Shown here one piece after another: positions 1 to 50,277 of a stretch of 64,000 nucleotides of DNA. The DNA is from Candidatus Dojkabacteria bacterium (GTDB lineage Bacteria; Patescibacteriota; Dojkabacteria; JAOAGR01): contig AP026679.1 of assembly GCA_025999155.1 (NCBI GenBank), positions 666,561 to 730,560 on the forward strand, in the 5' to 3' direction. The position numbers and the translations under genes are program-made. The notes below the pieces were generated by a model. That model was not told the DNA's origin and searched no databases. It saw only the letters and a program-made list of their open reading frames with translations. How positions within the stretch are numbered: the first letter of the stretch is position 1; each line of letters opens with the position of its first letter.

Positions 1-608
1 TAAGGTATGAAATGGTTAAACTAGCGGATGAGGGTTTGATTTCGAAAGCTCATTCTTCATCTGGTCGTATTCCCACCCTATTAGGATATAAGGTTTTTAT
101 CAAAGAATTGATGCAACCAGAAGATGTGAGTTATCTAACAGAAATAAGATTAAAGAGAGAACTAGATAAATTGAGACTTGAGCTCGACCGTATTCGATTG
201 ATCAAAGGTATTGCAAATTTATTAGCTGATGTAACAAAATATACTGGTGTAGTGTTTACTGAAGAAAGTATTTATTATTCTGGTTTGTATAATCTACTTG
301 ATTATCCTGAATTTGCAGATAAAAATAGTTTTAAGAATATTTTGATTGCCATAGATGATATTAACACACTTGCTAACGTTTTTCGGCGGACATATACAGA
401 TGGTAGAGTAAAGGTGCTGATTGGAAATGAACTGGATGAAGAGATTCTTCATGAATGTTCAATTGTGTTTACCGAAGCAAATATATACAATGGTGAGAGA
501 GTTGTACTGGCTATCATAGGTCCAAGAAGGCTAAATTTCCCTAGAGTCATTCCTATAGTTAAACTAGTCAGAGATATTATAAAAAGACTAGTAGGCTGGG
601 AAGGTTAG
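1..608 (+). CDS. hrcA: Heat-inducible transcription repressor HrcA, truncated at the 5' end by the window edge
   Basis: Translation 'LADEGLISKAHSSSGRIPTLLGYKVF' matches the conserved HrcA 'TSAGRIPT..GYR.YV' segment that follows the winged-helix domain. The ORF runs into the window start, so the N-terminus is missing. Confidence 0.7.
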   Translation, partial: RYEMVKLADEGLISKAHSSSGRIPTLLGYKVFIKELMQPEDVSYLTEIRLKRELDKLRLELDRIRLIKGIANLLADVTKYTGVVFTEESIYYSGLYNLLDYPEFADKNSFKNILIAIDDINTLANVFRRTYTDGRVKVLIGNELDEEILHECSIVFTEANIYNGERVVLAIIGPRRLNFPRVIPIVKLVRDIIKRLVGWEG

Positions 609-1411
609 CGTCCGATCATTTCTTCGATTTGCGGTTTCATGGTCGTCTCGTAGTTTGCATTACCTACTATGCGTCCTAATTGCGTGTAAAATTTTTGTAT
701 TTGTTTTGTATTATCCGGATTTATTACTTCTTTTTCTTCAATCTTAAAGATTGTGAATGTGGGAGTGCTTGTTGCTTGTAGTTGGTTGGAATTAAAGTTG
801 CTAAGATTCTTAATACGGTCTAGATATTTTTGTGATCTAAAGCACTCCACAAACTTATTTGTATCCAGTCTTACCAAGGCTGCATATGTTGTTGCTCTTG
901 CTTCATCGAAATTTTCATCAAAATTTTTATACATGAGCTCCTTATATTCAAAAAAGCTTTTAGGATTTTGTTCGCCAGCACAGTAGGCAGCTATGTGTTT
1001 TTCTGGCCCCTTTAAAAACTGTAAATCTATGAAAATATAGTCCATTACCCCAGGCCTTACGAAATCTTCAAACATTTTTTCAAAAGAAGATTTTACTGGT
1101 GATTGGTATCCGTGGAATCTTGCGCAATTAGGACAATCAAAATCACTGCTCTCTACGATAACAAATTTGGCTTTTGAATTATAAGAGAGAGAAGGCTGAG
1201 ATGACAGCACATTTTCGATTTTTGAGTAGTCTGATATCTCTTTAATCGAGCCGTAGTATGGAAATTTCGGCAGCAAAGAATCAATCTTTCTTCCTAAGTC
1301 TTGAAAACCCCCACCTACAGCAAGCACCGCCGAACTGATGAAAACACCAATTAATAATATTGATATTGATAGCAAAAAGTTTTTATTGTGAATTATCGCT
1401 TTCTTTCTCAT
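605..1411 (-). CDS. DsbA/BdbD-family thiol:disulfide oxidoreductase, membrane-anchored thioredoxin fold
   Basis: 268 aa with an N-terminal hydrophobic anchor. Contains a thioredoxin-type CxxC motif, 'DFDCPNCARFHG', in a DsbA-like context. Confidence 0.6.
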   Translation of the reverse strand: MRKKAIIHNKNFLLSISILLIGVFISSAVLAVGGGFQDLGRKIDSLLPKFPYYGSIKEISDYSKIENVLSSQPSLSYNSKAKFVIVESSDFDCPNCARFHGYQSPVKSSFEKMFEDFVRPGVMDYIFIDLQFLKGPEKHIAAYCAGEQNPKSFFEYKELMYKNFDENFDEARATTYAALVRLDTNKFVECFRSQKYLDRIKNLSNFNSNQLQATSTPTFTIFKIEEKEVINPDNTKQIQKFYTQLGRIVGNANYETTMKPQIEEMIGR

Positions 1412-14672: not shown

Positions 14673-15110
14673 TTACGTGCTATCCTTCGCAGAACCACCA
14701 TTTGTATAATAATAGTTTTGATATTGAAAAAGCTTAACTAGGAAGTAGATCGATATAGGAAGCAGGAATATTATGGAGACACCTAATGACAGAGATGTCA
14801 TCAATGTAAACACTACCTGTAACAGCCATACTCTTTTACTCAATTTTTTGTTAATAAAACTAAGATAGAATCCTATACCAAATAGTGATCCAAATATTAT
14901 TATACCAGCACTAAATAAAATAATCGCCGAAAAAAGTATAGCGTTAGTAGCGAAATCACTCGTGACCGAGTTATCTGAACCACCTAATAAAGCAACCGTT
15001 AAGGTAGTTAATAAGCATACATCGACTAATAGGAATAATAAAAGTAATATTGTAGAAGAGATGTTAAATATACGTAATCTTTCAAAAAATTTTATATCAT
15101 TCGAATCCAT
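14673..15110 (-). CDS. Hypothetical multi-pass membrane protein
   Basis: 145 aa with about four hydrophobic helices. No conserved motif recognised. Confidence 0.3.
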   Translation of the reverse strand: MDSNDIKFFERLRIFNISSTILLLLFLLVDVCLLTTLTVALLGGSDNSVTSDFATNAILFSAIILFSAGIIIFGSLFGIGFYLSFINKKLSKRVWLLQVVFTLMTSLSLGVSIIFLLPISIYFLVKLFQYQNYYYTNGGSAKDST

Positions 15111-30259: not shown

Positions 30260-30336
30260 TGGCTCGAGAGGTGGGACTTGAACCCACGACCCAGCGGTTA
30301 ACAGCCGCTCGCTCTACCGACTGAGCTACTCTCGAA
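30260..30336 (-). tRNA. tRNA-Asn (anticodon GTT), CCA encoded
   Basis: The reverse complement folds as a cloverleaf. Acceptor stem TCGAGAG/CTCTCGA. D arm GCTC-AGTCGGT-AGAGC. Anticodon stem AGCGG/CCGCT with loop CTGTTAA. T arm GGGTC-GTGGGTTCAAGTCCCAC. Ends in GCCA. Confidence 0.85.
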
Positions 30337-30926
30337 TAACTTAAATAAATACCTATTATGATATATTGAGTTTATGTTTTTTGCAACAATGATTACACCT
30401 AAATATTATTGTTTTTATTATTTTACATGATTAGAAAGTTTGAATGGAGATTGTACCTTTGTTACTATGAAGATGTGTAATTGTGCATTGTTAGTTATAT
30501 GCATGCATTAGATGGTAAATTTGCCGCTGCTAATTCGTACTCACATTCAAGGGCTGTTAGTTCTGCAAAATCCGCATAGAGCGCATATAAGAAACCCGTA
30601 GAGGGGCGACTAAGTCTCGCTGCTTCATCTCGTGAAAAGGCAAATACTTAGACACAAGAATGTCTAAATCAGACACCAGTTGAGGATACTAGACCTGTCG
30701 AGTCATTTTCATACACAATGATGTAGTAATGTATTGACTTTCTAGATTCGTTCAGTAGGTAACGAAATTGATATCGAAATAACCTTGTGATAATAATCCC
30801 CGTAGGGATACAAATTTTCGGTTATGTGGCATTATCCTAATCATTAGGATTAGAAAGTATTTTTTGTAATCCGCATATTGATCAATATGCTACTTTTGTC
30901 TATAGTCGTGCCATATTACTTACATA

Positions 30927-31643
30927 ATGCAGGACTTTGCTCATCTAGCTATGCTGTACACAACAGTAATTTTGTTACTCATATTGGGAGTGTTGATTAC
31001 ATTTTTTGGATTGCGTTTGGTTAGAGTTTTCTCTGTATTATTAGGTTTTATTATTGGTTTTACGCTGGGAACCTCGTTGACTGGGACAGATTGGATATTT
31101 CTAACAAATAGTGACAAGGACTTAGTACAAATCGCTATTGCAATCACTGTACCTTTAGCTTTAGGCGTTGTGGCAATGCTAGTGGCGATTTTGTTCTTAA
31201 GATTTGGTGTAGCCTTAGTCGGTGCAAATCTGGTTTTCACTTTGCTTACCAATTTGGCTGTTATTATGGGGTTTTCTTCAGATGGTGTCAACTTCCTGAT
31301 AGTTCTGATTTCAATTCTAGTTTTTATTGGGGTATTTGTTTCACACTTTTACAATACTGTGGTGATATTAATCACTTCGGTATATGGTGCTCTATACATC
31401 GTAATAGCTATATTTTTGATTTTAGTACAAGATATGAATATTTTAAATGTTCTTGTTGCAAATCACTACATCGATATCCTAAAAAACAATAATGAGATTA
31501 ATCGTTGGTACCTGGTCGTGTGGCTTGGTACATGGGGAGTATTTAGTTTACTGGGAGCACGGTATCAACTCCTATCTAGTAGGTACAAATCACATAACTC
31601 GCATAACTCGCATAACAAAAATTCATCAAATCCTTTGAGATAA
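30927..31643 (+). CDS. Hypothetical polytopic membrane protein with a C-terminal (SHN)n repeat
   Basis: 238 aa with ~7 hydrophobic helices. C-terminal 'KSHNSHNSHNKNSS'. Lies inside the tRNA-bracketed islet. Confidence 0.4.
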   Translation: MQDFAHLAMLYTTVILLLILGVLITFFGLRLVRVFSVLLGFIIGFTLGTSLTGTDWIFLTNSDKDLVQIAIAITVPLALGVVAMLVAILFLRFGVALVGANLVFTLLTNLAVIMGFSSDGVNFLIVLISILVFIGVFVSHFYNTVVILITSVYGALYIVIAIFLILVQDMNILNVLVANHYIDILKNNNEINRWYLVVWLGTWGVFSLLGARYQLLSSRYKSHNSHNSHNKNSSNPLR

Positions 31644-31904
31644 ATCTCGCTTCTGATTCAACTCCTTGCACTAAATAACTCTTCTCGGTAATATTGTTAT
31701 ATAAGACGGACACATACGATTCAGGAGATTTGAGAAGTGCGTACGGGCATATTGAGCTGACAGCAGAGGAAGCCCTAATCACATCTCGGTTTATAGACCT
31801 CTTTTTTTATAATACTCAATACAGATAAATTAAATCCCATGGTGTGATCTGTCAAAAAAGACCCAGCCCTCGAGAGTGTTTAGAGGGCTAGGCATCTATA
31901 TACG

Positions 31905-34900
31905 TCATATGATGGCCCCGTACCTTCTCAGTAGCATATTTGCAGCACCACTTAATATCAAAGTCAGAGTAGGTATTATGAGGTTGAGAGTCATATCTGC
32001 CCCTGTATTTGGAGCTTCTGATATTGTTATCTCTGCACAAGCCTGTGCTTCATTCGACCTTCCCCCCTCATTACGACCGTCTTCTATATTAGCATAAACG
32101 GTATCACATGTTCGACCACTAGATATTGGTCTAAACACGATTTCTAGAGTGTAACTCTGTCTACTAGCCAAAGACCCTAATGGCTCAGATTCAGTACATG
32201 GGGTGCGCGCATTTGTTCCTCCGGCACATAGGTTTTGAATATCTGGTATCGATATGACCCCATTATTACCGAGGTTATTCACCGTTGCACTCCTGCCTGC
32301 TGGGTTCGTGATCTCAACTCTCACAGGCGTCAATACACGAGCATCGTACAGATCTGTGAAATCAATGTCCGTATATGTTCGATTCTCAGGATCCGTGTTT
32401 CGAATGACAGCTCTAAATCTGACCTCATTCGGTGATACAACAGAAGGAGTCAAAGCGCTCTTTTCTACGGTAACTTGCAGTGGTCTTCGGGTTTCAGTAT
32501 TGAATTCAACACAACTACTTCGCGGAGGATTGAGTGAGTCTTCTCTTTGTTGACCTAGATTATCTCGGTAACTTATTGTGGTAACTACTCCACAATTATC
32601 ATTTTCACGTGCTAATTGAGGTGTGACTTCGCGTAATATTCTGAAAGTCAAAGTTAATGTAAATACTTCACCGTTATTGTTAGGTCCAGCAAGAAGCACT
32701 CCATCTTCTCCATTGATACGATTGGGCTTAGGTGGCATATTTGACCAAGTAAGTCTTCTTCGTCCTTCACTTATCGGTATACCTGTAAGAATATCAGGAT
32801 CTAACCTCTGGCCTCGATAAGATGCAGATACAAATTCAAGATAGTTAGGATCATATTCATCACTTAAAGTAAAGTTGTTAATATCAACGTTTCCAGTATT
32901 TTGAACATCGATATTGAATGTAATGGTATTATTTACAGGTTGATAATTTGGACTGACCAGAGTCTTAGTTATGTTTATATTGGGTCTGCTGTCTGGTGTC
33001 CTAGAAGGTGTTGGAGTAGGTGTTGGAGTGGGTGTTGTGGTAGTAGTGTCTCGCGTTATGAATGTAACACATCTCGCATCGTAACGTGGTTCAACCGTTC
33101 TCGTACCTATGAGGCCATCGACAGCACCGTTGAGTTGGACATTTACAAGAGGACTTCCCGTGTTTGCATCGATAATCGGGTTATTTGGATCTCCGTATAA
33201 ATCAGCATATGACACTTCCCAAGTGTATGTCATAATGTTGTTTGCTGTATCAGTTAGATTACCATTCACGTAAAAGTATCTTCTGTCGCCTCCATCTAAT
33301 CTAATTCTTTCGTTAGTTCGTATAGCTGCAGGACAAGGAATTCCACCTCCATTACATGTAGCATTATCGCGATTATATATGTATAGGTTACCATTATTAT
33401 TTCTTGGGTTTTGGATTCTCATTGTAATAGTAGTGGATTCTCCGGGTCTAAGAGTAGATCTCGTAGACGAAATATCCACACATGCTGATTCTGGTTCTCT
33501 TGATGGAGTAGGTGTTGGGGTGGGTGTCGGGGTAGTAGTAGTAGTGTCTCGCGTTATGAATGTAACACATCTCGCATCGTAACGTGGTTCAACCGTTCTC
33601 GTACCTATGAGGCCATCGACAGCACCGTTGAGTTGGACATTTACAAGAGGACTTCCCGTGTTTGCATCGATAATCGGGTTATTTGGATCTCCATATAAAT
33701 CAGCATATGACACTTCCCAAGTGTATGTCATAATGTTGTTTGCTGTATCAGTTAGATTACCATTCACATAAAAATATCTTCTGTCACCTCCATCTAATCT
33801 AATTCTTGCATTAGTTGGTATGGCTGCAGGACAAGGAATTCCCCCTCCATTACATGTAGCATTACCACGATTATATATGTATAAGTTTCCGTTACTATTT
33901 CTTGGGTTTCGGATTCTCATCGTAATAGTAGTAGATTCTCCGGGTCTAAGAATATATCTAGTAGAAGAGATATCCACACATTCTGGTTCTGGTGCCCTTG
34001 ATGGAGTAGGGGTAGTAGTTGGTGTGGTTGTGATTGTGATTGTAGTTGTGATCGTTGTGGTTATACCAGGGCACCTATAGTCCCATGGATTTCTGCATAG
34101 AGTAGCAGTTGGCATACCGCGAAGTATTTCACTTACTAGGCGGCCAGCATTAGCCGGGTTATTACATACGCTTAGATCTACACCACAGTCCCTGTAGTTA
34201 TCTATTGATCGATGTTCCGTATCTCCATAAGTCCAACCATCTACACCTTGTATTTGTGCTCCTGCACATACGCAAATTTGCCCTGGCTGTGGGTTACAGC
34301 CACTGTAAAAAGTTGCTTTAGCACATTTACCACCACCAGTAGCATATCGGCAGCTTTTATTTGGGTATAGTCTGGGATCTCGGTCATCTGCACCTGGGTA
34401 GTCTCGATTATTTCGAGACGTACATACAAAAATGTTATTTGGATCACATACAGGATTATCTATATAACACACATTACCACCACATTGACATTGTCCTCTT
34501 CCATAATTCCCATCGTTACAGGAAGGTAATTGGGGTGTTTGTTGGTTACACCTGCTTTCTGCTTCTCTTACACATCCGGGGACATCTTGAGGTAGACATA
34601 TTCCACCTTCTCCAGGGTTATTTCCACTTCCAGGGCGGCCTGCGCGTGTATTGATCGCTAAGCAGCATTGGGCATATTCGCGATCTATACATGACTGTGC
34701 TTGAGCTGAGTCAGGTTCGGGGAGTACTTGGTTGTTTCCCACTTTCATAAATAGGAAAACTAGTGCCCCTGATACGATAAATAATGTGAGAAGGAGAATC
34801 TTAGTGACTAAAGAGGGCGTTCTTGTCTGTACTCTCATTATACTTGTATTGTTGTGTTGTCTTATGCCTACCATGATTTTTGATAGTTTTATAGTATTAC

Positions 34901-34913
34901 TACATTTTATCAC
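31905..34913 (-). CDS. Large secreted/cell-surface protein: Cys-rich N-terminal domain, two ~165-aa tandem repeats separated by Thr/Pro linkers, C-terminal sorting-signal-like tail
   Basis: 1002 aa. N-terminal hydrophobic signal/anchor, many Cys, (TP)n linkers. Two near-identical repeats ('SREPESACVDISSTRSTLRPGESTTITMRIQNPRN...YDARCVTFITRD'). C-terminal 'EAPNTGADMTLNLIIPTLTLILSGAANMLLRRYGAII' is a motif, then a hydrophobic helix, then a basic tail. The last ~130 aa are homologous to the C-terminal domain of the 35499..37058 protein. Confidence 0.6.
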   Translation of the reverse strand: MIKCSNTIKLSKIMVGIRQHNNTSIMRVQTRTPSLVTKILLLTLFIVSGALVFLFMKVGNNQVLPEPDSAQAQSCIDREYAQCCLAINTRAGRPGSGNNPGEGGICLPQDVPGCVREAESRCNQQTPQLPSCNDGNYGRGQCQCGGNVCYIDNPVCDPNNIFVCTSRNNRDYPGADDRDPRLYPNKSCRYATGGGKCAKATFYSGCNPQPGQICVCAGAQIQGVDGWTYGDTEHRSIDNYRDCGVDLSVCNNPANAGRLVSEILRGMPTATLCRNPWDYRCPGITTTITTTITITTTPTTTPTPSRAPEPECVDISSTRYILRPGESTTITMRIRNPRNSNGNLYIYNRGNATCNGGGIPCPAAIPTNARIRLDGGDRRYFYVNGNLTDTANNIMTYTWEVSYADLYGDPNNPIIDANTGSPLVNVQLNGAVDGLIGTRTVEPRYDARCVTFITRDTTTTTPTPTPTPTPSREPESACVDISSTRSTLRPGESTTITMRIQNPRNNNGNLYIYNRDNATCNGGGIPCPAAIRTNERIRLDGGDRRYFYVNGNLTDTANNIMTYTWEVSYADLYGDPNNPIIDANTGSPLVNVQLNGAVDGLIGTRTVEPRYDARCVTFITRDTTTTTPTPTPTPTPSRTPDSRPNINITKTLVSPNYQPVNNTITFNIDVQNTGNVDINNFTLSDEYDPNYLEFVSASYRGQRLDPDILTGIPISEGRRRLTWSNMPPKPNRINGEDGVLLAGPNNNGEVFTLTLTFRILREVTPQLARENDNCGVVTTISYRDNLGQQREDSLNPPRSSCVEFNTETRRPLQVTVEKSALTPSVVSPNEVRFRAVIRNTDPENRTYTDIDFTDLYDARVLTPVRVEITNPAGRSATVNNLGNNGVISIPDIQNLCAGGTNARTPCTESEPLGSLASRQSYTLEIVFRPISSGRTCDTVYANIEDGRNEGGRSNEAQACAEITISEAPNTGADMTLNLIIPTLTLILSGAANMLLRRYGAII
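33005..34070. repeat. Direct tandem repeat, two copies of ~495 bp (>90% identical), inside the 31905..34913 CDS
   Basis: The DNA string 'gtagtagtgtctcgcgttatgaatgtaacacatctcgcatcgtaacgtggttcaaccgttctcgtacctatgaggccatcgacagcaccgttgag...' recurs at ~33043 and ~33537. Each copy is flanked by (ggtgtx)n segments that encode the TP linkers on the other strand. Confidence 0.75.
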
Positions 34914-35255
34914 TTAGGTATAACTTTGGTCAACAGTTTATAGGATAAATTATTCCGTGCATAATTTTTACGAAAGACTACGCTGGCTTTCTTTTTTTTT
35001 GAATTAAGATATATTGGTCAGTACGTAACAAAAACTGTTTTCAGATCCTTACGATATGAGCAAATCCGTGGGTTGTTTGTACCATCGAGATTTCTGGTAC
35101 TGATGTTTGTAATCCAAGAGTAATCTACTCAAGATGGAAAATATTCAATCTACGTGCAGTTGAAGATCTATTCTTTCATTTCTCGGTTACTTAGTCTGCG
35201 TGAATAAATTGCCATCCCAGTGTAAAAGAGAGTGATATCTCAGTTTATAGAACCA

Positions 35256-35341
35256 TGGCGGAGAGTGTGAGATTCGAACTCACGAGGGTTTCCCCAACTG
35301 CCTTTCCAGAGCAGCGCCATAGACCACTAGGCGAACTCTCC
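35256..35341 (-). tRNA. tRNA-Ser (anticodon GGA), class II with long variable arm, CCA encoded
   Basis: Reverse complement: acceptor GGAGAGT/ACTCTCC, a 3-bp D stem, anticodon loop CTGGAAA, a long variable arm TTGGGGAAACCCTC, T arm GTGAG-TTCGAAT-CTCAC, and a GCCA end. Confidence 0.8.
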
Positions 35342-35498
35342 GTCCGCTTACAATTTTAGAGATAACAAAGTAGTTTAGTCAAATACTGTCTTGACTTGTT
35401 TATTGTTTGACCATGTAGTCTCTAGACATAAGTTTGATGCTTGAAATAAAAAAATCCTCTGATACAACAGGGGATTTACCAGTATTCGTTTATTTAAA

Positions 35499-37058
35499 TT
35501 AAGGTAACGAGAATCTACTACGCAGAACTGCTAGCGCCACAGCAACTGCTCCACCCAGTGTGATAGCTGATAATCCTGGAAGTAGCGGTCCTAACGCTTC
35601 TAAATTTAACAGGACTGGAGTGTCAATGTATACACATTGTTCTCCATTCGCCGTTGCATTCTGTGATTCATTTTGTCCTGTAACAAATACGGAAGTCGAT
35701 TCACAAACTCTGCCACGTTCTTTTGTAGCAAATGATACTTCAATAGTATAGCTATCTTCGTATTTTAAGCTCCCTAAAGTGTCTGACTCATTACAATCCG
35801 GAGCGCGCAAATTAACCATTCCATCACATAAGTTCTGTATATTTTCTATAGAAATCGATCCACTATTCGCTATATCGTCAATAGTTGCACTTCTTCCTGT
35901 CTGTTCATGCTTAATAAACAGTCTTTGTGGTATCAATTTTGAAGAGTCGTACACGTTTAGAAAATCTATCGATTGATAAATCTCATCAGGACTATTATTT
36001 GTAATTTTAGTAGTAATTTTTACATCATTACCTAAGTATACAGAAGAAGTCGTGGTGCTTTTTTCTATCACAGGCGACAGATGTGTACCCCCACCCCCTC
36101 CCGTATCTGTAGGTGTTGAAGTGTCCTCTAATGTAGGTGTTGATGTCGGTGTCGACGTCGGTGTTTGGGTTGGCGTTGAAGTTTGTGTTTGTCTTGATGT
36201 TGGGGTTGGCGTTGGTGTTGAAGTTGGACTTGATGTTGGGGTTGTACTCACTATTGGAACGAAAAAGTCTGTTCCAAAGTACGGAGTTCGAATGACACAA
36301 ACATTAGGTTTCTGACATCGAAAACGTAAATCATATGCACCTAAATGTAACGAACTATCTTTCGGTGTCGGTCCTACATTACGGCACCACAACCCACCCC
36401 ATCTGTCGGGATCTTGCATATAATCAGCTCCAAATACTACACCTTTTGAGTAATCAGCGAAGCAATCACCACAATAGTATCGCTGATTATCTATCGTTAT
36501 GTAACCGTTATTATCTAAATCATTTCGTTGAAGAGCTTCCATATTTTCCGGCAGTGTGAAGAACCAATTAGGATTACCCCCAACCCAGAAATTAGAATCT
36601 ACCCCTTGAGTATATCGAGGATATGGATTGAAAATGTAAAAAGAGCAGACAAATTCACGTGTCCCTTTTTGATTGACTGGATGATTAGGATCAGGTATGT
36701 AGGGCCTCATCCCGTATGTTCGAAAACTTGCTAGAGGACCAGTGGAACCCGATTCAAACTTTATGACTGTTGTTGGAAAAGGGCCCGGTAGATATGTTCG
36801 ATCAATTTTTAGAACGTAACCAGCCCTATCGAGAGCGTACCCAGGAGAATCGTCATCGCTGTTATTAAGACTATTGCTATCGACCTCCGCTGTAATGTAA
36901 TTAGGACTAGGGTCGGAAACTGTTTTAACAGACACTTTCATGCGAGCACAAGTATCAACTACAGAAGATTCCTGATACTCTGCCTTGACTGTAGCTACAT
37001 CTAAAGCAGTTTCGGTGTTTTTGATAGCTGTATAACGAGTACCAATAGAGATCCGCAT
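35499..37058 (-). CDS. Secreted/cell-surface protein paralogous (C-terminal domain) to the 1002-aa protein; Cys-rich N-terminal domain, Thr/Pro/Ser linker, sorting-signal-like tail
   Basis: 519 aa. Linker 'TPTSSPTSTPTPTPTSRQTQTSTPTQTPTSTPTSTPT...GGGGGT'. C-terminal domain 'GRSATIDDIANSGSISIENIQNLCDG...C.ESDTLGSL..SYT.E' aligns with 'GRSATVNNLGNNGVISIPDIQNLCAG...CTESEPLGSL..SYTLE' of the neighbour. Ends with a hydrophobic helix plus 'LRSRFSLP'. Confidence 0.55.
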   Translation of the reverse strand: MRISIGTRYTAIKNTETALDVATVKAEYQESSVVDTCARMKVSVKTVSDPSPNYITAEVDSNSLNNSDDDSPGYALDRAGYVLKIDRTYLPGPFPTTVIKFESGSTGPLASFRTYGMRPYIPDPNHPVNQKGTREFVCSFYIFNPYPRYTQGVDSNFWVGGNPNWFFTLPENMEALQRNDLDNNGYITIDNQRYYCGDCFADYSKGVVFGADYMQDPDRWGGLWCRNVGPTPKDSSLHLGAYDLRFRCQKPNVCVIRTPYFGTDFFVPIVSTTPTSSPTSTPTPTPTSRQTQTSTPTQTPTSTPTSTPTLEDTSTPTDTGGGGGTHLSPVIEKSTTTSSVYLGNDVKITTKITNNSPDEIYQSIDFLNVYDSSKLIPQRLFIKHEQTGRSATIDDIANSGSISIENIQNLCDGMVNLRAPDCNESDTLGSLKYEDSYTIEVSFATKERGRVCESTSVFVTGQNESQNATANGEQCVYIDTPVLLNLEALGPLLPGLSAITLGGAVAVALAVLRSRFSLP

Positions 37059-37465
37059 GTTATAAGAAGCGTGAGTACAAAAATTTGAATGGATTTATGT
37101 ACAGCATAGTATTCATTTTGTGTTTGTGGTGTCATATGATTTATACTAGAGACTATTATAAAAATCAGCACTAGTCCATATGTTTTGATTAGATTTAAAT
37201 GTGTCTAAGTAAGATTGATTTCTAAACTTTTTTGATAACTTTACACTCAACTCGGTTCATCTATAAAAAAACTACGGATTTGTGTAGTTGAGATGCTGCG
37301 ATGAAAATGCCATTGGTGGATTATGGAACTCTTGTATAGTTACACTAACCAGAGTCTGTATTGTTATCTATATTACATCTTTTTATATATATTTTATATT
37401 TTGAACAATTTGAATTTTTTTAAATTTGTGTTAATATTCGATAGCTTGCCCGATTATAAACATAC

Positions 37466-37540
37466 CGCGGGATGGAGCAGTGGCAGCTCGTCAGGCTCAT
37501 AACCTGAAGGTCGCTGGTTCGAATCCAGCTCCCGCAACCA
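37466..37540 (+). tRNA. tRNA-Met (anticodon CAT), possibly initiator-type (C1·A72 mismatch), CCA encoded
   Basis: Acceptor CGCGGGA/TCCCGCA with position 1 unpaired. D arm GAGC-AGTGGCA-GCTC. Anticodon stem TCAGG/CCTGA with loop CTCATAA. T arm GCTGG-TTCGAAT-CCAGC. Discriminator A, then CCA. Confidence 0.8.
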
Positions 37541-43756: not shown

Positions 43757-45466
43757 GTGTCGATAAACGCGTTTGTTGAATTTAGTGTAATTTTAACAGT
43801 AGCAGCATTATTAGGATCGATAGCAGTAAAGTTTAAGCAGCCACCTATACTTGGCTATATTTTAGCAGGTTTGTTATTAGGACCTCTGACAAGCTATTTT
43901 GATCCGAGAAGTGATTTAATAGAATTACTTGCTAGTATTGGTGTTACTTTCCTATTATTTACATTAGGACTTGAGTTAAATTTTTCAGAATTAAAACACG
44001 TAGGAAAAGTAGCTTTTGTGACTGGTATTGGGCAAATAGTTTTTACTTCTGTTATAGGTTATATTATTGCAATTTGGTTGGGCTTTTCTTCAATAGCGTC
44101 TTTTTTCATAGCGATTGGTCTGACTTTTAGTTCTACAATCATTATTGTCAAATTATTAGCAGCAAAAAATCAGCTAGATACCTTATATGGTCGAATTAGT
44201 GTAGGTTTTCTTTTGGTTCAGGATTTCATTGCGATATTAATTTTGATAGGAATTTCTGCAATTAAAAACGTTGACGCGTCATCGATAGTCAATGTTGGTG
44301 TTAGTTTATTTTTAGCTTTAGTGAAAGCTATAATCGTTTTGGCTATAGCTTTTGTACTTACAAGATATCTTTTAAATCCTTTATTAGATTCTTTAAAGAA
44401 TGAAAAAGAAGTAATTTTTTTAATAACACTTGCTTGGGCGTTATTTTTAGCTGCTGTATATAATTCTGAGCACATTGGTTTTACTAAAGAAGTTGGAGGT
44501 TTAATTGCAGGAATTTTATTATCAAATAGATTTGAGCAACTACAATTAGAAAGTTGGACAAGACCATTACGCGATTTTTTTCTTGCATTGTTTTTCGTTT
44601 TATTAGGAGCAAATATTCATGTGTCATCATTATCTGATGCGTTACTACCCACTATAATCTTTTCTATATTTGTTTTAATAGGGAATCCGCTTATTGTTAT
44701 GATATTAATGGGATGGTTAGGTTATACGAAGAAAACCAGCTTTCTGACAAGTCTTGCCGTTGCTCAGATATCGGAGTTTAGTTTGATTCTCGTCGGTTAT
44801 GCTTATACCTCGTTAGGTGTCGTTGATAATGTGACTTTGGCTATAATGGCACTTGTAGGTGGTATAACAATGACGCTTTCTTCATATATGATCTATTACA
44901 ATGAGAAATTGTATTCGGTTTTATCAAAATACTTAGGACTTTTTGAATTTAAAAAAACACTCATATCAGCAGATAGCGATTTGAAAAATACAAATTTATC
45001 AAAGAAAATAGTACTTTTTGGATGTCATAGAATGGGACGTCATTTTCTTCTAAACCTTGACCATCATAAAAGCGACATTTTAATTGTTGATATTGATCCT
45101 CAAAATGTTCACGAATTAAAAGAAATGGGTTATGACGTGATTTACGCTGATATGTCAGACAGCATGATGTACCCTTTTTTTCATTTGGATAATGCTGAAA
45201 TTGTCATTTCTACAGTACCAAGTATAAAAGAAAATCTAAAGCTTTTGGACTTCATAAGGGATTTACAGAATAAACCTATAATAATAGTTACCGCAAATAA
45301 TAATCATGATGTTGTTAAATTGTATGATGCCGGAGCAGATTTTGTAGTGTATCCGCATTTAGTTAGCAGTGAGTTATTGGCTAAAATTGCGAAAAAAGGT
45401 AAGCTCGATAAGAAACTTGTAAAGTCTAGAACAATGCATATGGAAAAATTATCAAAGATTGTCTAG
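43757..45466 (+). CDS. CPA2-family cation:proton antiporter (KefB/KefC-like) with a C-terminal RCK/TrkA-N domain
   Basis: 569 aa. ~12 TM helices (Na_H_exchanger fold). C-terminal Rossmann 'IVLFGCHRMGRHF....DILIVDIDPQNVHELKEMGYDVIYAD'. Confidence 0.8.
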   Translation: MSINAFVEFSVILTVAALLGSIAVKFKQPPILGYILAGLLLGPLTSYFDPRSDLIELLASIGVTFLLFTLGLELNFSELKHVGKVAFVTGIGQIVFTSVIGYIIAIWLGFSSIASFFIAIGLTFSSTIIIVKLLAAKNQLDTLYGRISVGFLLVQDFIAILILIGISAIKNVDASSIVNVGVSLFLALVKAIIVLAIAFVLTRYLLNPLLDSLKNEKEVIFLITLAWALFLAAVYNSEHIGFTKEVGGLIAGILLSNRFEQLQLESWTRPLRDFFLALFFVLLGANIHVSSLSDALLPTIIFSIFVLIGNPLIVMILMGWLGYTKKTSFLTSLAVAQISEFSLILVGYAYTSLGVVDNVTLAIMALVGGITMTLSSYMIYYNEKLYSVLSKYLGLFEFKKTLISADSDLKNTNLSKKIVLFGCHRMGRHFLLNLDHHKSDILIVDIDPQNVHELKEMGYDVIYADMSDSMMYPFFHLDNAEIVISTVPSIKENLKLLDFIRDLQNKPIIIVTANNNHDVVKLYDAGADFVVYPHLVSSELLAKIAKKGKLDKKLVKSRTMHMEKLSKIV

Positions 45467-45982
45467 ATACTCTTGTAATAAAATTCTAGCACTTTCACTG
45501 TCGACATTCTTTGTTATGTTTTTTTTGGATATATTCATACTTTTAAGGTTGTGGATAGCTATTTGTGATGTTAAAGTCTCATCTACATATTCTATTGGGC
45601 AGAATATTTTTTTTGACACAAGAAATTTATTAAATGATTCAAAAAAACGACGTATAACCTTGGCTTGTCTACCTTCGGTAATTTGTTTTGTTTGGGGATC
45701 AATAATTTTAGGAATCCCTACAATTATTTTTTCTGGGTAATAATAGTTTATGTAATGAAGCATTTTATTGAAGAGTTTTTGTTTTTCTAATTTAGCTGTG
45801 GATCGGAAAGACCGAGTAGTTTGTGTTGTTGTGTTGCTAACCTGAATATTTTTTTTGTTACGATTTGGCGATTTTGATGGTATATTGTTACTAATGTATT
45901 TTAAAGCAATTGCGTACCTTTGAGTTTCATTACTCACTGCCACTCCTATTCTTTTTTCACCATAATCAAATGCGATTATCAT
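45452..45982 (-). CDS. ruvX: Putative pre-16S rRNA nuclease / Holliday-junction resolvase-like YqgF (RuvX) with a low-complexity insertion
   Basis: 176 aa. 'MIIAFDYGEKRIGVAVSN' N-terminus and 'KIIVGIPK......T.EG.QA' and 'E.VDETLTS..A' YqgF motifs. Contains an S/T/K/N-rich insertion. Confidence 0.65.
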   Translation of the reverse strand: MIIAFDYGEKRIGVAVSNETQRYAIALKYISNNIPSKSPNRNKKNIQVSNTTTQTTRSFRSTAKLEKQKLFNKMLHYINYYYPEKIIVGIPKIIDPQTKQITEGRQAKVIRRFFESFNKFLVSKKIFCPIEYVDETLTSQIAIHNLKSMNISKKNITKNVDSESARILLQEYLDNL

Positions 45983-45990
45983 ATCTATAA

Positions 45991-47796
45991 TTATATCTTT
46001 CTCAGTTTTCGCGCTAGATTTTCGGCTTCATTTAATAAATCCTCAACTTCGGTAAGTCCTTCGTCCCAGAATCGTTTATCGGATATATCTATCCCTATAT
46101 CATTAAATATTGCTTTTGGTGATTTTGAAGACCCAGCAGATAAAAACGCTTTAACTTTATTTATTTCTTTTGGATTGTTTTTCACACGGCGTTGTAGAGC
46201 CTTAGAAATTAAGCGTCCAATTGCGTATGAGTAGTATTTGTAAACATAAAAATAATACCCTTTGAGCCAGTATAACCACCAATTCTGACTATACTTATCA
46301 AACAAAACAGCATCTCCCATATAATCTCGCATGTTTTTGACAAACAGTTCTCCTATTCTTTGAGAAGACAGGTAACCTTCTTTTCTAAATGCGTTATGTA
46401 AATCTTGTTCAAGTGTGTAGTATGCGACTCGTGGGAATATCGTACTAATTTCATCGTTTAGTTTGGACATTATAATAGCGAGGCGTTCTTCATTATTTGC
46501 TTCTTTTAATATAGCTGGGAATACGAAATCTTCCATGAATGTACTTGCCACTTCAGAAGTCGAAGTAGGAGTTTCAAAAATTAAAGCATTTTGTGTTTTT
46601 TTGCTTAACTCATTATGAATTCCGTGACCTAACTCATGAGCAAATGTAAGAACATCGTTTAATCTGTTGTTATGGTTCAAAAGTATGTATGTAGGATCAT
46701 TTAAAAGATTGTGCACGCAGAAAGCCCCGTAATTTTTGTCTTTTTTTGGGTATACGTCAATCTGACCGTTCTGATTGTACATTTCCAAGATATCACCAAA
46801 CTCTTCATCAAGGTTCTGTAGTACATTCTTAACAAGAGTAAAGGATTGTTCATATGTGTATTTAGTCTCTTTAGATCCGTACTCTACGTTACATTCGGCA
46901 AAAGTAATTTTTTCCACTCCTAGTAACCTTGCTTTTAGTTCATAGTAACGCCGAGATATGTAATATTTGCGACGGACTGATTCAAGTAGTGTGTCAATAA
47001 CGTCGGTTTCTATGTCACCAGCAAGGAGTCTACCTCTGTCGGGACGGTCAAAACCTCTTAGTTCATCATTAATTTTTGCATACTGGAGTATAGCGTTTAC
47101 TACCCTTTCAGCAATATCGACGTATTTTTGCTGAATTTTATTAAGAGCCTTAGCAGCTGACTCTCTGGTAGCTTTGTCATTATCTGATAGTAAGATTACT
47201 ATTTGAGACAGTGGTAGCTTCCTTTTGCCATCCGTTGTTACAACATAACGCTCTTCTTGGTCTAAGAGAGCCTCCATCATATCAACCCAATCGAAGTAGC
47301 TAGATTTCTTAAATAGATTAATAATCTGTTCTTCTTTTTCGGACAGTATATAATCTGCCTGAGTAAATAACTTCTCAAGGTAGTGCTTATAAGGTTTTAG
47401 CGTTTCTGATTGTAAAAATTCATTCCGTTTATCTTTAGGAATTTTGCTTATCGATAATTGAAAAAACACTAAAGCGTCACGTTGATCTTCGTTGATAACC
47501 TTATTTTCTAATGCTTTGAGCGTGGGATTGCTCCGATCTAAAGCCCTGCTAAGTAGCACAAAATAATTAGCCTTTCCTGCTGTGCCATAGTATCGCATTA
47601 ATTTTTCATAATCATCTAATGCTACTCTAAGAATATGAGGATTCTCTAGATAATCAGATCGATTTTTCCACTTTTCTACAAACGCATTTACGTTCTCAGA
47701 GACTTCTTTTAGGTGAGTTAATATATTGTTTTCGTCAATATCTTTAAATAGGTGTGATAAATCCCACTGTGTGCGAATTTGAATTTGTTGATGCAT
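45991..47796 (-). CDS. pepF: Oligoendopeptidase F (M3B family zinc metallopeptidase), copy 1
   Basis: 601 aa. 'AHELGHGIHNELSKK' HExxH. M3-type N-terminal helical domain. About 70% identical to the 48466..50277 protein. Confidence 0.85.
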   Translation of the reverse strand: MHQQIQIRTQWDLSHLFKDIDENNILTHLKEVSENVNAFVEKWKNRSDYLENPHILRVALDDYEKLMRYYGTAGKANYFVLLSRALDRSNPTLKALENKVINEDQRDALVFFQLSISKIPKDKRNEFLQSETLKPYKHYLEKLFTQADYILSEKEEQIINLFKKSSYFDWVDMMEALLDQEERYVVTTDGKRKLPLSQIVILLSDNDKATRESAAKALNKIQQKYVDIAERVVNAILQYAKINDELRGFDRPDRGRLLAGDIETDVIDTLLESVRRKYYISRRYYELKARLLGVEKITFAECNVEYGSKETKYTYEQSFTLVKNVLQNLDEEFGDILEMYNQNGQIDVYPKKDKNYGAFCVHNLLNDPTYILLNHNNRLNDVLTFAHELGHGIHNELSKKTQNALIFETPTSTSEVASTFMEDFVFPAILKEANNEERLAIIMSKLNDEISTIFPRVAYYTLEQDLHNAFRKEGYLSSQRIGELFVKNMRDYMGDAVLFDKYSQNWWLYWLKGYYFYVYKYYSYAIGRLISKALQRRVKNNPKEINKVKAFLSAGSSKSPKAIFNDIGIDISDKRFWDEGLTEVEDLLNEAENLARKLRKI

Positions 47797-47967: not shown

Positions 47968-48456
47968 TTATATGAGTACATCTTTTATTATGTTTTTTCT
48001 GGATAGATTCATACTTTTAATATCGCGGATAGCTATTTCTGATGTTAAAGTTTCATCCACGTATTCTATTGGACAGTTTACGCTTTTTGATAAAAGAAAT
48101 TTGTGAAATAAGTTAAAAAATCTGCGTATCGTTTTTGCTTGTCTACCTTCAGTGATTTGTCCTGTGCGAATATCCCAGACTTTAGGTATTCCTATAATAA
48201 TTTTTTCCGGATAGTAATAGTTGATATAGTAAAGCATTCTATTGAGTAACTTCTGTCTTTCTATTCTTATTTGAGCTCTCAGGGATTATGTAATTTGTGC
48301 TGTTGTGCTACCACCTTGAAACTTTCTTACGCTATACTCTTTAGACGTTACTAGTATCTTGTTGGACATGTATTTTAAAACAATCGCATATTTACCTGTT
48401 TAATCACTTCCCGCTACACCCATTTTCCTTTCACCATAGTCAAATGCTATTATCAT
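47968..48456 (-). pseudogene. Degraded second copy of ruvX/yqgF (premature stop after ~20 codons; C-terminal half retained as a separate ORF)
   Basis: Minus-strand reading from 48456 gives 'MIIAFDYGERKMGVAGSD*' (TAA). The ORF 47968..48237 encodes the YqgF C-terminal half ('IIGIPK...EGRQAKTIRRF...EYVDETLTSEIA'). It occupies the same position relative to pepF copy 2 as the intact ruvX does relative to pepF copy 1. Confidence 0.55.
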
Positions 48457-48465
48457 TATTTATGT

Positions 48466-50277
48466 CTATATCTTTTTTAATTTTATCGCTAATTGTTCAG
48501 CTTCACCTAGTAAATCTTCTATCTCGGCAAGTCCTTCATACCAGAATTTTTTATCTGATATGTTGATACCGATATCGTTAAATATATCTTTAGGCGACTT
48601 TGATGATCCTGCAGATAAAAAGTATTTGACTTTATTTATTTCTTCAGGATTATTTTTTACTCGGCGTTGGAGAGCCTTGGAGATTAATAGTCCGCTAGCG
48701 TATGAATACACGTAAAAATAGTATCTTATATGAGACCAATACAACCACCAATTTTCACTTCCAGCATCAAATGAAACTGCATCACCCATATAGTCTCTCA
48801 TATTTTTAATAAATAACTCTCCAATTCTTTTATAGGATACATAACCCTCTTTTCTAAATGTTTGATGCAAATCTTGTTCAAAAGTATAGCAAGCTATTTG
48901 TCGAAATATAGTACTAACTTCATCATTAAGTTTTGACATGAGGAGAGCAAGACGTTCTTCATAATTTGCACCTCTTAGTATTGATTGAAGTACAAAATCT
49001 TCCATGAACGTACTGGCTACCTCTGCAGTAGAAGTAGGTGTTGAAAAATTTAAAGCATTCTGGGTCTTTTTGATTAATTCATTATTTATTCCATGGCCTA
49101 CTTCATGAGCCAAAGTTAAAACATCGTTCAATCGGTTATTATGGTTTAAAAGTATATATGTTGGATCAGTTAACAGATTGTGAGAACAGAAAGCACCATG
49201 CGTCTTTCCTTTTTTTGAATATGCATCAATCTGACCATTCTCATTATACATTTGTATTATATCTCCAAATTCTGGATCAAGGTTATGAAGTACGTTTCTG
49301 ACCATATCATAAGCTTGTTCATAAGTGTATTGAGTTTCTAAAGTACCATATTCGACATTCCGCTCTGCGTAACTTATTTTGCTCACTCCTAATAATTTAG
49401 CTTTGAGTGCATAATATCTTTGAGAGATAGAATATTTTTTTGTTACTGCATCTATTAGAGCATCTACGACTTCGCTTTCAATATCGTCATTCAAATGTCT
49501 ATTTTTGTCGGGGCGTTCTAATCCTCTTATTTCATCCTCAATTTTTGCATACTCAAGTACAGCATTCAGTTCTCTCTCTGCAATATGAACATATTTTTGA
49601 AGAATATCATTCAAAGCTTTAGCCGCAGAATCTCTGACGGTTTTATTTCTGTCTGATAAGAGACTTGTTATTTTAGAAAAGGGCAATTTCTTTTTGCCAT
49701 TTTCTGTAAACACATAACGTTGTTCTTGTGCCAACAGGCTTTCAATCATATCGACCCAATCCGAATAGCTAGTTTTTTCAAAGAGGTTTACGATCTGCTC
49801 TTCTTTTTCAGAAAGCATATAAGCAGCCTTTGCGAATATTTTCTCGAGATAATGTTTATAATTTTCTAAGGCTTGCGATTGTAAAAATTTATTTTGTTTA
49901 TCTTTTTGAATTGTACTTATAGCTAGTGTAAAAAAGACTAAAGCGTTTGCATTTCGTTGACTTTCATAGACGACTTTATTTTCTAATGCCTTTAGTGCAG
50001 GATTATTTTGATCTAAAGCCCGACTCAGATGTATAAAATACGCCGCTTTCCCTGCCGTACCATAATAATGCATCAATTTCTCATAATCATCCAGTGCTTC
50101 TCGAAGAATCATTGGATCCTCCAGAAAATCAGTACGATTTTTCCATTTTGCTACAAATGCTTCTACATTTTGTGTCACTTCTTTCATGTGAGCTAATATG
50201 CTTTTCTCATCGATATCTTCAAACAGTTGTGATAAATCCCATTGTGCCCTGATTTGTCGTTCTTGCCTCATGTTCAA
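48466..50277 (-). CDS. pepF: Oligoendopeptidase F (M3B family zinc metallopeptidase), copy 2
   Basis: 603 aa. 'AHEVGHGINNELIKK' HExxH. Collinear with, and ~70% identical to, copy 1. About 75% nucleotide identity. Confidence 0.85.
   Translation of the reverse strand: MNMRQERQIRAQWDLSQLFEDIDEKSILAHMKEVTQNVEAFVAKWKNRTDFLEDPMILREALDDYEKLMHYYGTAGKAAYFIHLSRALDQNNPALKALENKVVYESQRNANALVFFTLAISTIQKDKQNKFLQSQALENYKHYLEKIFAKAAYMLSEKEEQIVNLFEKTSYSDWVDMIESLLAQEQRYVFTENGKKKLPFSKITSLLSDRNKTVRDSAAKALNDILQKYVHIAERELNAVLEYAKIEDEIRGLERPDKNRHLNDDIESEVVDALIDAVTKKYSISQRYYALKAKLLGVSKISYAERNVEYGTLETQYTYEQAYDMVRNVLHNLDPEFGDIIQMYNENGQIDAYSKKGKTHGAFCSHNLLTDPTYILLNHNNRLNDVLTLAHEVGHGINNELIKKTQNALNFSTPTSTAEVASTFMEDFVLQSILRGANYEERLALLMSKLNDEVSTIFRQIACYTFEQDLHQTFRKEGYVSYKRIGELFIKNMRDYMGDAVSFDAGSENWWLYWSHIRYYFYVYSYASGLLISKALQRRVKNNPEEINKVKYFLSAGSSKSPKDIFNDIGINISDKKFWYEGLAEIEDLLGEAEQLAIKLKKI

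Follow-up and report, generated by a model that had tools for sequence, protein, structure and literature searches.

A conserved two-gene surface locus interleaved with tRNA genes in a Dojkabacteria genome: a putative wall-anchored stalk protein and a probably decaying paralog

Introduction

Do the clustered tRNA genes of a Dojkabacteria genome bracket an acquired island with surface-protein cargo, or a resident locus through which these bacteria might attach to other cells? The question is raised by a 7.3-kb region of Candidatus Dojkabacteria bacterium (NCBI GenBank assembly GCA_025999155.1, contig AP026679.1, positions 666,561 to 730,560), in which two large open reading frames (ORFs), here called P1 (1002 amino acids, aa) and P2 (519 aa), lie among three tRNA genes. 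The analyzed stretch of 64 kb is referred to as the window. We conclude, with a probability of about 0.75, that the segment from approximately 31.9 to 37.5 kb is a conserved, chromosomally fixed two-gene cell-surface locus with two interleaved tRNA genes, in which P1 is an intact wall-anchored stalk protein and P2 is being lost.

The Dojkabacteria, formerly candidate division WS6, belong to the Candidate Phyla Radiation, CPR for short and also named Patescibacteria, whose members presumably spend their lives attached to other cells. To our knowledge, few of the surface molecules that mediate such close contact are known beyond pili, and we know of no cultured model among the Dojkabacteria. Type IV pili have been described as a contact-mediating surface structure in Saccharibacteria (PMC11623550). 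Below, loci in other genomes are numbered with the prefix L and proteins of the P1/P2 family with the prefix P and four digits.

Results

The locus is fixed in position among related genomes

The protein of 463 aa encoded directly to the right of tRNA-Met matches an NCBI protein of a Candidatus Dojkabacteria MAG with 100% identity and has two homologs (60–61% identity), one in locus L015 (GCA_017880035.1) and one in locus L016 (GCA_026004335.1). In the window and in both relatives the order is P1 (-), tRNA-Ser(GGA) (-), P2 (-), tRNA-Met (+) and the 463-aa gene (+; 462 aa in L015 and L016). The P1 ortholog is complete in L015; only its start is present in L016, where the contig stops inside the gene. 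To the right of the locus, both relatives are colinear with the window through genes for a TPR protein, two small proteins, an epimerase, a Na/H exchanger, RuvX and PepF (and RecO in L016), with 60–95% aa identity between the flanking proteins. In a sister strain (L007, approximately 96.6% nucleotide identity) the order is unchanged over the available 3.4 kb.

Synteny stops to the left of P1, where a membrane protein with an SHN-repeat tail, tRNA-Asn and a DsbD/HMA gene have no counterpart in L015. An earlier note on this DNA had proposed that the three tRNA genes delimit an accessory islet. Neither part of this proposal can be upheld: tRNA-Asn, the SHN-tail protein and the DsbD/HMA gene lie outside the conserved block, and P1, tRNA-Ser, P2, tRNA-fMet and the 463-aa gene are kept in both L015 and L016. 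In L015 a gene at 1-1128 (+), left of the P1 ortholog, encodes a 911-aa protein whose visible part carries acidic repeats (GEGVSDQ / EEVSNQEDLG). With nothing alike in the window, this gene marks where synteny breaks off beside P1.

More distant P1 homologs (35–57% identity) occupy a second conserved block, with the order tRNA-Arg, sortase, a protein of about 500 aa, an EVE-domain protein, tRNA-Met, the P1 homolog, a membrane protein of 121–125 aa, DivIC, RidA and an RNase-H-like exonuclease. This block spans 6789-14187 in L001, 4444-14291 in L003 and 5354-13472 in L014, the three loci in which the P1 homolog has a sortase gene two genes upstream. The initiator tRNA gene adjoins the P1 homolog in four distant loci (L001, L003, L004 and L014), and DivIC follows within a few genes in seven (L001, L003, L004, L012, L013, L014 and the contig of P0002); downstream gene order and content differ in L012 and L013. 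The tRNA-Met copies of the window, L001, L003 and L004 show a mean column identity of 96%, and a C1:A72 mismatch is present in these copies. This mismatch marks the bacterial initiator tRNA, and from it we take the tRNA-Met of the window to be an initiator tRNA.

The approximately 500-aa protein, which is membrane-anchored and has no Pfam match, and the small polytopic protein are uncharacterized, constant partners of the adhesin-like gene in the distant block. When the neighbors from this block (sortase, EVE, DivIC, RidA and others) were searched against the window by tblastn, none was found, and the sole strong match was an aldehyde dehydrogenase gene far from the locus. An ORF of 145 aa at 14673-15110 (-) is weakly similar to the distant 121-aa membrane protein (29% over 83 aa, E 0.037) and may be a displaced ortholog or a chance match. 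In P0001, the closest distant homolog, the gene is split near the C-terminus (L003, 9807-10097), with PPITGS, a transmembrane (TM) segment and RRK in a separate, overlapping frame, which could reflect a frameshift or an assembly error of the metagenome contig. A scan with an alignment of the closer family recovered one true family member among 185,579 species genomes. A scan of genome contigs with the DsbD/HMA flank protein found no relative, and a metagenome scan with P2 gave no match.

P1 has the features of an exported, modular stalk protein

A promoter-like site lies within the 5' extension of the longest P1 ORF, ahead of the likely start at M26. An exact-sequence look-up of the 1002-aa ORF gave no match, probably because gene callers have chosen another start. 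The N-terminus consists of a basic n-region and an 18-residue hydrophobic core (residues 39–56), conserved across the family and preceded by a lysine, K38, that is invariant in the family alignment. An AxA motif follows at residues 70–72, with A72 conserved in at least 90% of 32 relatives. The hydropathy of this region is 2.85 in P1 and 2.2–3.3 in most family members, and P1 is predicted to be exported via the N-terminal signal. The earlier note had described two large secreted proteins of 1002 and 519 aa. Both sizes hold, and hydropathy confirmed an N-terminal signal in P1, but P2 as encoded has no hydrophobic N-terminus in frame.

The region behind the anchor is a Cys-rich head with 21 Cys in 211 aa. 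The core of the head, CRY.TGGG.CA..F..GCNP..GQ.C.C...W.YG...C...C.NP..C, is present in every family member. An exhaustive profile search over 1.84 billion representatives recovered the head domain in only 28 clusters; in each case it lies close to the N-terminus of a large protein. Pfam gave no match to the head region in any of the 32 family proteins.

A Thr/Pro linker connects the head to a tandem duplication of a 166-aa module, predicted by AlphaFold2 (AF2) to be all-beta with a predicted local distance difference test score (pLDDT) of approximately 60–80. The two copies are 94% identical at the aa level and 91% at the nucleotide level. They differ by 34 synonymous versus 12 non-synonymous codon changes, so that both copies are maintained by selection. 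At the protein level they are identical over more than 100 residues despite the synonymous differences, from which we conclude that the duplication is old, has escaped homogenization by gene conversion and is under strong purifying selection in both copies. Short-read assemblies break within these repeats; the contig of L005 stops at 33738. As a whole, P1 is under purifying selection, with an omega of 0.14 against the sister strain L007 (18 synonymous and 9 non-synonymous changes). Thr/Pro-rich linkers are present in both P1 and P2, as had been noted earlier.

Toward the C-terminus, two domains of the CLIPPER/DUF11 type would form part of the stalk. In the first of these, residues 644–699 matched PF24346 (DUF7507/CLIPPER_2; 28.4 bits, cut-off 27), PF01345 (DUF11/CLIPPER; 24.6, cut-off 24.6) and TIGR01451 (28.2, cut-off 24). 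Across the family, DUF11 was matched in 20 of 32 proteins and DUF7507 in 19 of 32. The second domain has no Pfam match and is related to CLIPPER by hhalign (probability 96.2%, E 2.6e-9). It aligns with the C-terminal domain of P2 (BLASTP, 38% identity over 183 aa, E 3e-26), so that the homology claimed for the C-terminal domains of the two proteins is borne out. The AF2 model of residues 462–972 is all-beta, with pLDDT 85–93 in the first and 85–95 in the second domain, and the modeled CLIPPER domains have a CnaA-like immunoglobulin (Ig) beta-sandwich fold. Among the Protein Data Bank (PDB) fold matches of the stalk model, the best included Ig-like domains of PrgB, C-terminal domains of antigen I/II and integrin legs.

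DUF11 has been renamed CLIPPER and described as a CnaA-like stalk domain with an Asp-catalyzed Lys-Asn isopeptide bond, with the crystal structure given as PDB code 9IFR (Costa et al. 2025, 10.1101/2025.04.25.650565). The first P1 domain has Lys, Asp and Asn at the expected positions: K650, D685 and N771/N773 are invariant in eight family members, and their spacing resembles that of K715, D748 and N806 in the solved CLIPPER domain. The second domain likewise keeps a Lys and an Asp (K818 and D854) but lacks an Asn where one would be expected.

The C-terminus of P1 carries APNTG, 36 residues from the end and followed by A (APNTGA), then the hydrophobic segment LNLIIPTLTLILSGAANMLL and RR. In 23 of the 29 other family proteins compared, the last 70 residues include an xPxTG match, mostly with a hydrophobic helix and a basic tail after it; the 29 are the 30 listed family proteins less P0017 (228 aa), which ends long before any C-terminal signal. 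The variants in relatives are PPxTG, TPPTG, APVTG, LPPTG, IPNTG, TPNTG, QPNTG and TPATG, of which LPPTG and IPNTG are canonical. The position of the putative sorting motif and its TG are conserved, and its opening residues depart from the canonical form. CPR genomes are reported to encode sortases commonly (PMC6851277). Both proteins had been likened to sortase substrates at the C-terminus. This likeness holds for P1; in P2 a helix and a basic tail are present, but a PxTG-type motif is not.

Taken as a mechanism, P1 would be exported by the Sec pathway through its N-terminal signal anchor or signal peptide and retained in the membrane by the C-terminal signal (A/P-P-x-T-G-A, hydrophobic helix, basic tail). 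A sortase would then cut at the TG and couple P1 to the peptidoglycan of the cell wall. The two Ig-like domains of CLIPPER/DUF11 type, the two 166-aa beta modules and the Thr/Pro linkers would make up the stalk, possibly with an isopeptide cross-link, and the disulfide-rich head would be presented at its tip for attachment. P2 is a paralog with a different head, named YWMRPY after a motif, and is probably being lost through a 1-nucleotide deletion, relaxed selection and, in the sister strain, further lesions.

Several results weigh against this picture of P1. Common listings of sortase motifs (regular-expression list in 10.1101/2025.04.25.650565) include neither APNTG nor PPxTG. No sortase gene was found in the window, either by tblastn with the sortases of relatives or by domain scans of 26 ORFs. 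The isopeptide bond in the first CLIPPER domain is suggested by conserved residues only, and when both CLIPPER-type profiles were searched against PDB sequences, no meaningful match emerged, not even to the solved CLIPPER domain. The AF2 model of the head has a pLDDT of 60 and its PDB matches (Foldseek) are noise; because of this low confidence and the missing fold match, there is no direct argument for binding.

Modular surface proteins that are sorted to the wall and have CLIPPER/DUF11 stalks are already known. New here are two head modules without a family, the [A/P]PxTGA variant of the sorting motif, the conserved pairing with an initiator tRNA gene and a decaying paralog. Compared with the CLIPPER-stalk fibrillar adhesins of the LPXTG type (Costa et al. 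2025, 10.1101/2025.04.25.650565), P1 differs in this variant motif and has only two CLIPPER-type domains, the second very divergent and unrecognized by Pfam. The heads of P1 and P2 lack a Pfam family, and the host is a CPR bacterium, a group unnamed in the main text of that survey. Antigen I/II adhesins (SspB, SpaP, AspA and BspA) and PrgB have tandem Ig-like, isopeptide-stabilized, membrane-proximal domains in a wall-anchored adhesin, and their domains rank 1 and 28–39 among the PDB fold matches of the P1 stalk model. The likeness is at the level of the fold only, with 8–14% sequence identity and template modeling (TM) scores of 0.17–0.29, the low scores being due to multi-domain geometry; unlike antigen I/II, P1 has no alanine-rich or proline-rich repeats and no V-domain. 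A hypervariable PTD-repeat protein of a Gracilibacterium (Sieber et al. 2019, PMC6851277) is likewise from the CPR and has a single TM helix at the N-terminus, a body predicted to be extracellular, and repeats rich in Pro and Thr. Its nucleotide sequence diverges while the aa sequence is preserved, as is also seen between the two 166-aa repeats of P1. Its repeat units are of 9 nucleotides, no CLIPPER domain or sorting signal has been reported for it, and it has no sequence relation to P1.

Modules vary between relatives and between the paralogs

The YWMRPY module makes up the N-terminal 270 residues of P2. It is 63% identical to that of P2 in L015 and matches P0029 over 229 residues (38% identity, E 5e-38). 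The module also occurs mid-protein in the larger family members P0029 and P0014, and it is present as well in both orthologs of P2 and in that of P1 in L015. P1 of the window contains the Cys-rich head, two 166-aa modules, the CLIPPER domain and the C-terminal domain. Its ortholog in L015 consists of the Cys-rich head (76% identical), a (TTPP)n linker, a YWMRPY module where the window protein has its two 166-aa modules, the CLIPPER domain (85%) and the C-terminal domain (75%). P2 has one YWMRPY module and the C-terminal domain in the window, two YWMRPY modules and the C-terminal domain in L015, and one YWMRPY module, two CLIPPER-like domains and the C-terminal domain in L016. The occurrence of the YWMRPY module in either gene points to exchange between the paralogs. 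Thus, the position of the locus is constant among the relatives, and modules have been swapped, duplicated or lost within and between both genes. The earlier reading of a variable surface-antigen locus therefore applies to module content, with the indicated exchange between paralogs, but not to the presence or position of the genes.

P1 probably serves to attach the bacterium to another cell, be it a partner or a host, or to a substrate. The alternative, that P1 is a structural, S-layer-like envelope component or a division-associated wall protein instead of an adhesin, is unlikely in our estimation. It would agree with the purifying selection on P1, with an S-layer protein among the lower PDB fold matches and with the fixed block in which the homolog lies by DivIC in seven relatives, and by a sortase where upstream sequence exists. 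However, close relatives differ by swaps of head and middle modules, a pattern typical of proteins that face a ligand and not of those that form a lattice, and the top fold matches include wall-anchored adhesin stalks. The family is also very rare (the 28 clusters given above), and in this genome the gene is not beside DivIC, as seen from the tblastn search of the window.

A more far-reaching idea, which we regard as doubtful, is that Dojkabacteria and related CPR recognize their partners through two undescribed domains, the Cys-rich head and the YWMRPY module, with P1 and P2 forming a module-exchange system in which tRNA-Ser and tRNA-fMet serve as homology anchors for recombination between genes and strains. 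If so, module exchange would diversify attachment specificity in a very small genome. The putative wall-anchored stalk with its rare disulfide-rich head makes the locus a concrete, clonable candidate for CPR cell contact, and the [A/P]PxTGA motif is testable with the neighboring sortase of relatives. The window, L015, L016 and L007 form a natural comparison set in which head modules are swapped or the paralog is inactivated.

P2 is best read as a recently inactivated paralog

P2 shares with P1 only the membrane-proximal CLIPPER-like domain, in which a two-cysteine insertion (LC.G....R.P.C) is otherwise found only in the lineage of P1 and P0001. The C-terminal hydrophobic segment ITLGGAVAVALAVL is followed by RSR. 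With 786 and 916 residues, the P2 orthologs of L015 and L016 exceed the P2 ORF of the window in length; both are intact and start with a clear signal anchor, (K)xIQIFVLTLxIxFGFLxxLIxxxxKN...ATVKA. The P2 ORF of the window has a peak hydropathy of only 0.45 in its first 70 residues, as compared to the 2.2–3.3 of most family members. Its signal anchor, MTPQTQNEYYAVHKSIQIFVLTLLITCGSLLVLVIQLSK, is encoded by a separate 5' fragment that is out of frame and reaches a stop five codons past the junction with the body. The two parts are split by a 1-nucleotide deletion at approximately 37023, where the base is present as G in L007, and the N-terminus rebuilt with one base restored can be aligned with those of the orthologs in L015 and L016, which are intact.

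Against L007, the omega of P2 is 0.62 (12 synonymous and 24 non-synonymous changes), and the difference from P1 on single-step codon counts (12:24 versus 16:8) has a Fisher p of 0.017. L007 has lesions of its own in P2, namely a 1-nucleotide deletion at 37078, a change of CAA to TAA at codon 215 and a 27-nucleotide deletion. The assembly sequence thus shows a disabling lesion relative to intact orthologs together with relaxed constraint. Because the anchor is out of frame, omega is 0.62 and L007 carries these lesions, we read P2 as a paralog that has most likely been inactivated recently in this species. Loss of the sorting motif was considered as part of the decay and this was dropped, for PV[TL]LN occupies the corresponding site in all three P2-type proteins, the intact orthologs included; the lack of a PxTG-type motif is a trait of the lineage.

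Other points count against the loss of P2. The body is still an open, uninterrupted frame of 519 codons with a terminator-like hairpin after it, and the frameshift was seen only in this assembly and in L005, a 100% identical copy from the same sample and read set, so that an assembly error or slippage is conceivable. On this alternative P2 would be a functional second exported surface protein, anchored by its C-terminal helix, and the frameshift would be an assembly error, a phase-variation switch or bypassed by -1 slippage on an A-run (TCA AAA ACA). The body does lie in the -1 frame of the anchor ORF, the junction adjoins an A5 run, and the L015 and L016 orthologs are intact. However, A5 is short for slippage and we infer that the heptamer is not a canonical X XXY YYZ, and the deletion of L007 in the same anchor region is a different one, accompanied by the nonsense codon and the 27-nucleotide loss. 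With an omega of 0.62 versus 0.14 for P1, we consider a functional P2 improbable and retain the reading of an inactivated gene.

The composition of the locus is native

The GC content of P1 and P2 is 41–42%, as compared to 34% in the flanks. At second codon positions (GC2) it is 0.51 in P1 and 0.48 in P2 (window mean 0.315 +/- 0.038), whereas at third positions (GC3) it is 0.276 and 0.283, respectively (window mean 0.280 +/- 0.034). All of the GC excess is thus in GC2 and reflects the content of Thr, Pro, Gly, Cys and Arg. Synonymous codon usage in both genes is typical of the window, and the composition agrees with a native locus. The ORF list and the domain scan revealed no integrase or transposase among the ORFs of the window, and no copy of a tRNA end (up to 4 mismatches in 22 nucleotides) or of a 3' half (up to 9 in 40) was found anywhere in it. 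The earlier note, which had found neither integrase, transposase nor repeat of a tRNA 3' end and had decided for a surface-protein locus over a recently integrated element, was right in this respect.

ARAGORN found three tRNA genes in the entire window, all at the locus, and Rfam agreed, as previously noted (with tRNA-Asn ending at 30335). By our own estimate, the chance that all three fall within 7.3 kb is approximately 0.04. The intergenic spacers across the locus measure, in order, 591, 261, 342, 157 and 407 nucleotides, and the third grows to 417 if M26 is the start of P1. In the rest of the window the median is 48 nucleotides and only 5 of 43 spacers are at least 150, which confirms the unusual size previously ascribed to them.

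Given that gene order is kept in relatives, that GC3 and codon usage are native and that att-like repeats are absent, we conclude that the locus is old, fixed in position and neither accessory nor recently integrated, with only the modules inside both genes varying. An adhesin-carrying island acquired horizontally and integrated at a tRNA gene, which the tRNA genes, long spacers, higher GC content and surface-protein cargo would suggest by analogy with tRNA-linked integrative islands, is already largely refuted and has next to no probability left, as the locus shows neither an integrase with duplicated attachment (att) sites nor atypical composition with variable presence, its order recurs unchanged in both related genomes as well as in the sister strain, and the adjacency to tRNA-fMet persists in more distant relatives. 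This calls for caution with other tRNA-adjacent, GC-rich regions with long spacers, since all three signals occur here without horizontal transfer.

Feature inventory and neighboring genes

The coordinates of all features are listed in Table 1. The polytopic membrane protein with the (SHN)n tail, also described in the earlier note, was found as an ORF of 238 aa. No RNA family beyond the three tRNAs was matched by Rfam between 29.8 and 38.0 kb. The spacer of 591 nucleotides between tRNA-Asn and the TM7S3-like gene (30336-30926) showed no Rfam match and no resemblance to the family proteins; its RNA folding energy is ordinary (z -0.46 and -0.73) and its ORFs are all of 48 aa or less. Promoter and terminator scans gave no excess over the shuffled expectation.

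Table 1. Position, strand and supporting evidence of features at the locus (window coordinates).
Feature	Position	Strand	Evidence
tRNA-Asn(GTT)	30260-30335	-	ARAGORN, Rfam
238-aa polytopic TM7S3/TM198-like protein, ends SHNSHNSHN	30927-31643	+	ORF; Pfam match
P1, intact modular surface protein	31905-34838 (977 aa from likely start M26); longest ORF to 34913 (1002 aa)	-	ORF, family alignment
P1 putative C-terminal sorting signal: APNTG (32001-32015), hydrophobic segment, RR tail, stop	31905-32015	-	Family comparison
P1 membrane-proximal CLIPPER-like domain, common to P2 (residues 807-960)	32034-32495	-	BLASTP, hhalign
P1 CLIPPER/DUF11-type Ig-like stalk domain (residues 644-806)	32496-32984	-	Pfam, NCBIfam profiles
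P1 166-aa beta module with TP linker, tandem duplication (copy 1 33525-34022, copy 2 33027-33524)	33027-34022	-	Direct repeat
P1 Cys-rich head	34059-34691	-	Alignment; no Pfam family
P1 predicted N-terminal signal anchor or long signal peptide (MRVQTRTPSLVTK + ILLLTLFIVSGALVFLFM)	34734-34838	-	Hydropathy
tRNA-Ser(GGA), between P1 and P2	35256-35341	-	ARAGORN, Rfam; same position in L015, L016, L007
P2 body, 519-codon ORF	35499-37058	-	ORF
P2 TM segment with RSR tail, without PxTG	35499-35618	-	Hydropathy
P2 CLIPPER-like domain	35619-36080	-	BLASTP versus P1
P2 Ser/Thr/Pro linker	36081-36248	-	Coordinate check
P2 YWMRPY head module	36249-36956	-	Alignment to relatives
P2 out-of-frame 5' fragment encoding signal anchor	37001-37135	-	Frame translations, alignment to L007
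tRNA-Met(CAT), initiator-type (C1:A72 mismatch), conserved neighbor of the family	37466-37540	+	ARAGORN, Rfam

Directly to the left of tRNA-Asn, the segment 28407-30122 (+) encodes a 149-aa cupredoxin-like membrane protein followed by a fusion of HMA, a metal-binding domain, with a DsbD_2/CcdA-type thiol-transfer membrane domain. Disulfide handling for Cys-rich exported proteins and metal resistance are both conceivable functions of the fusion. Neither the cupredoxin-like gene nor the HMA/DsbD gene is syntenic in L015.

To the right of the locus, a second RuvX copy was found at 47977-48447 (-), with 62% identity over 157 aa to RuvX at 45452-45982. It sits in a spacer of 669 nucleotides between two PepF genes (45991-47796 and 48466-50277). 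The copy is probably disrupted, because it is absent from the list of ORFs of at least 100 aa, and its position between the PepF genes looks like the result of a tandem duplication of RuvX-PepF with one RuvX decaying. RuvX-like fragments are present at the same place in L015.

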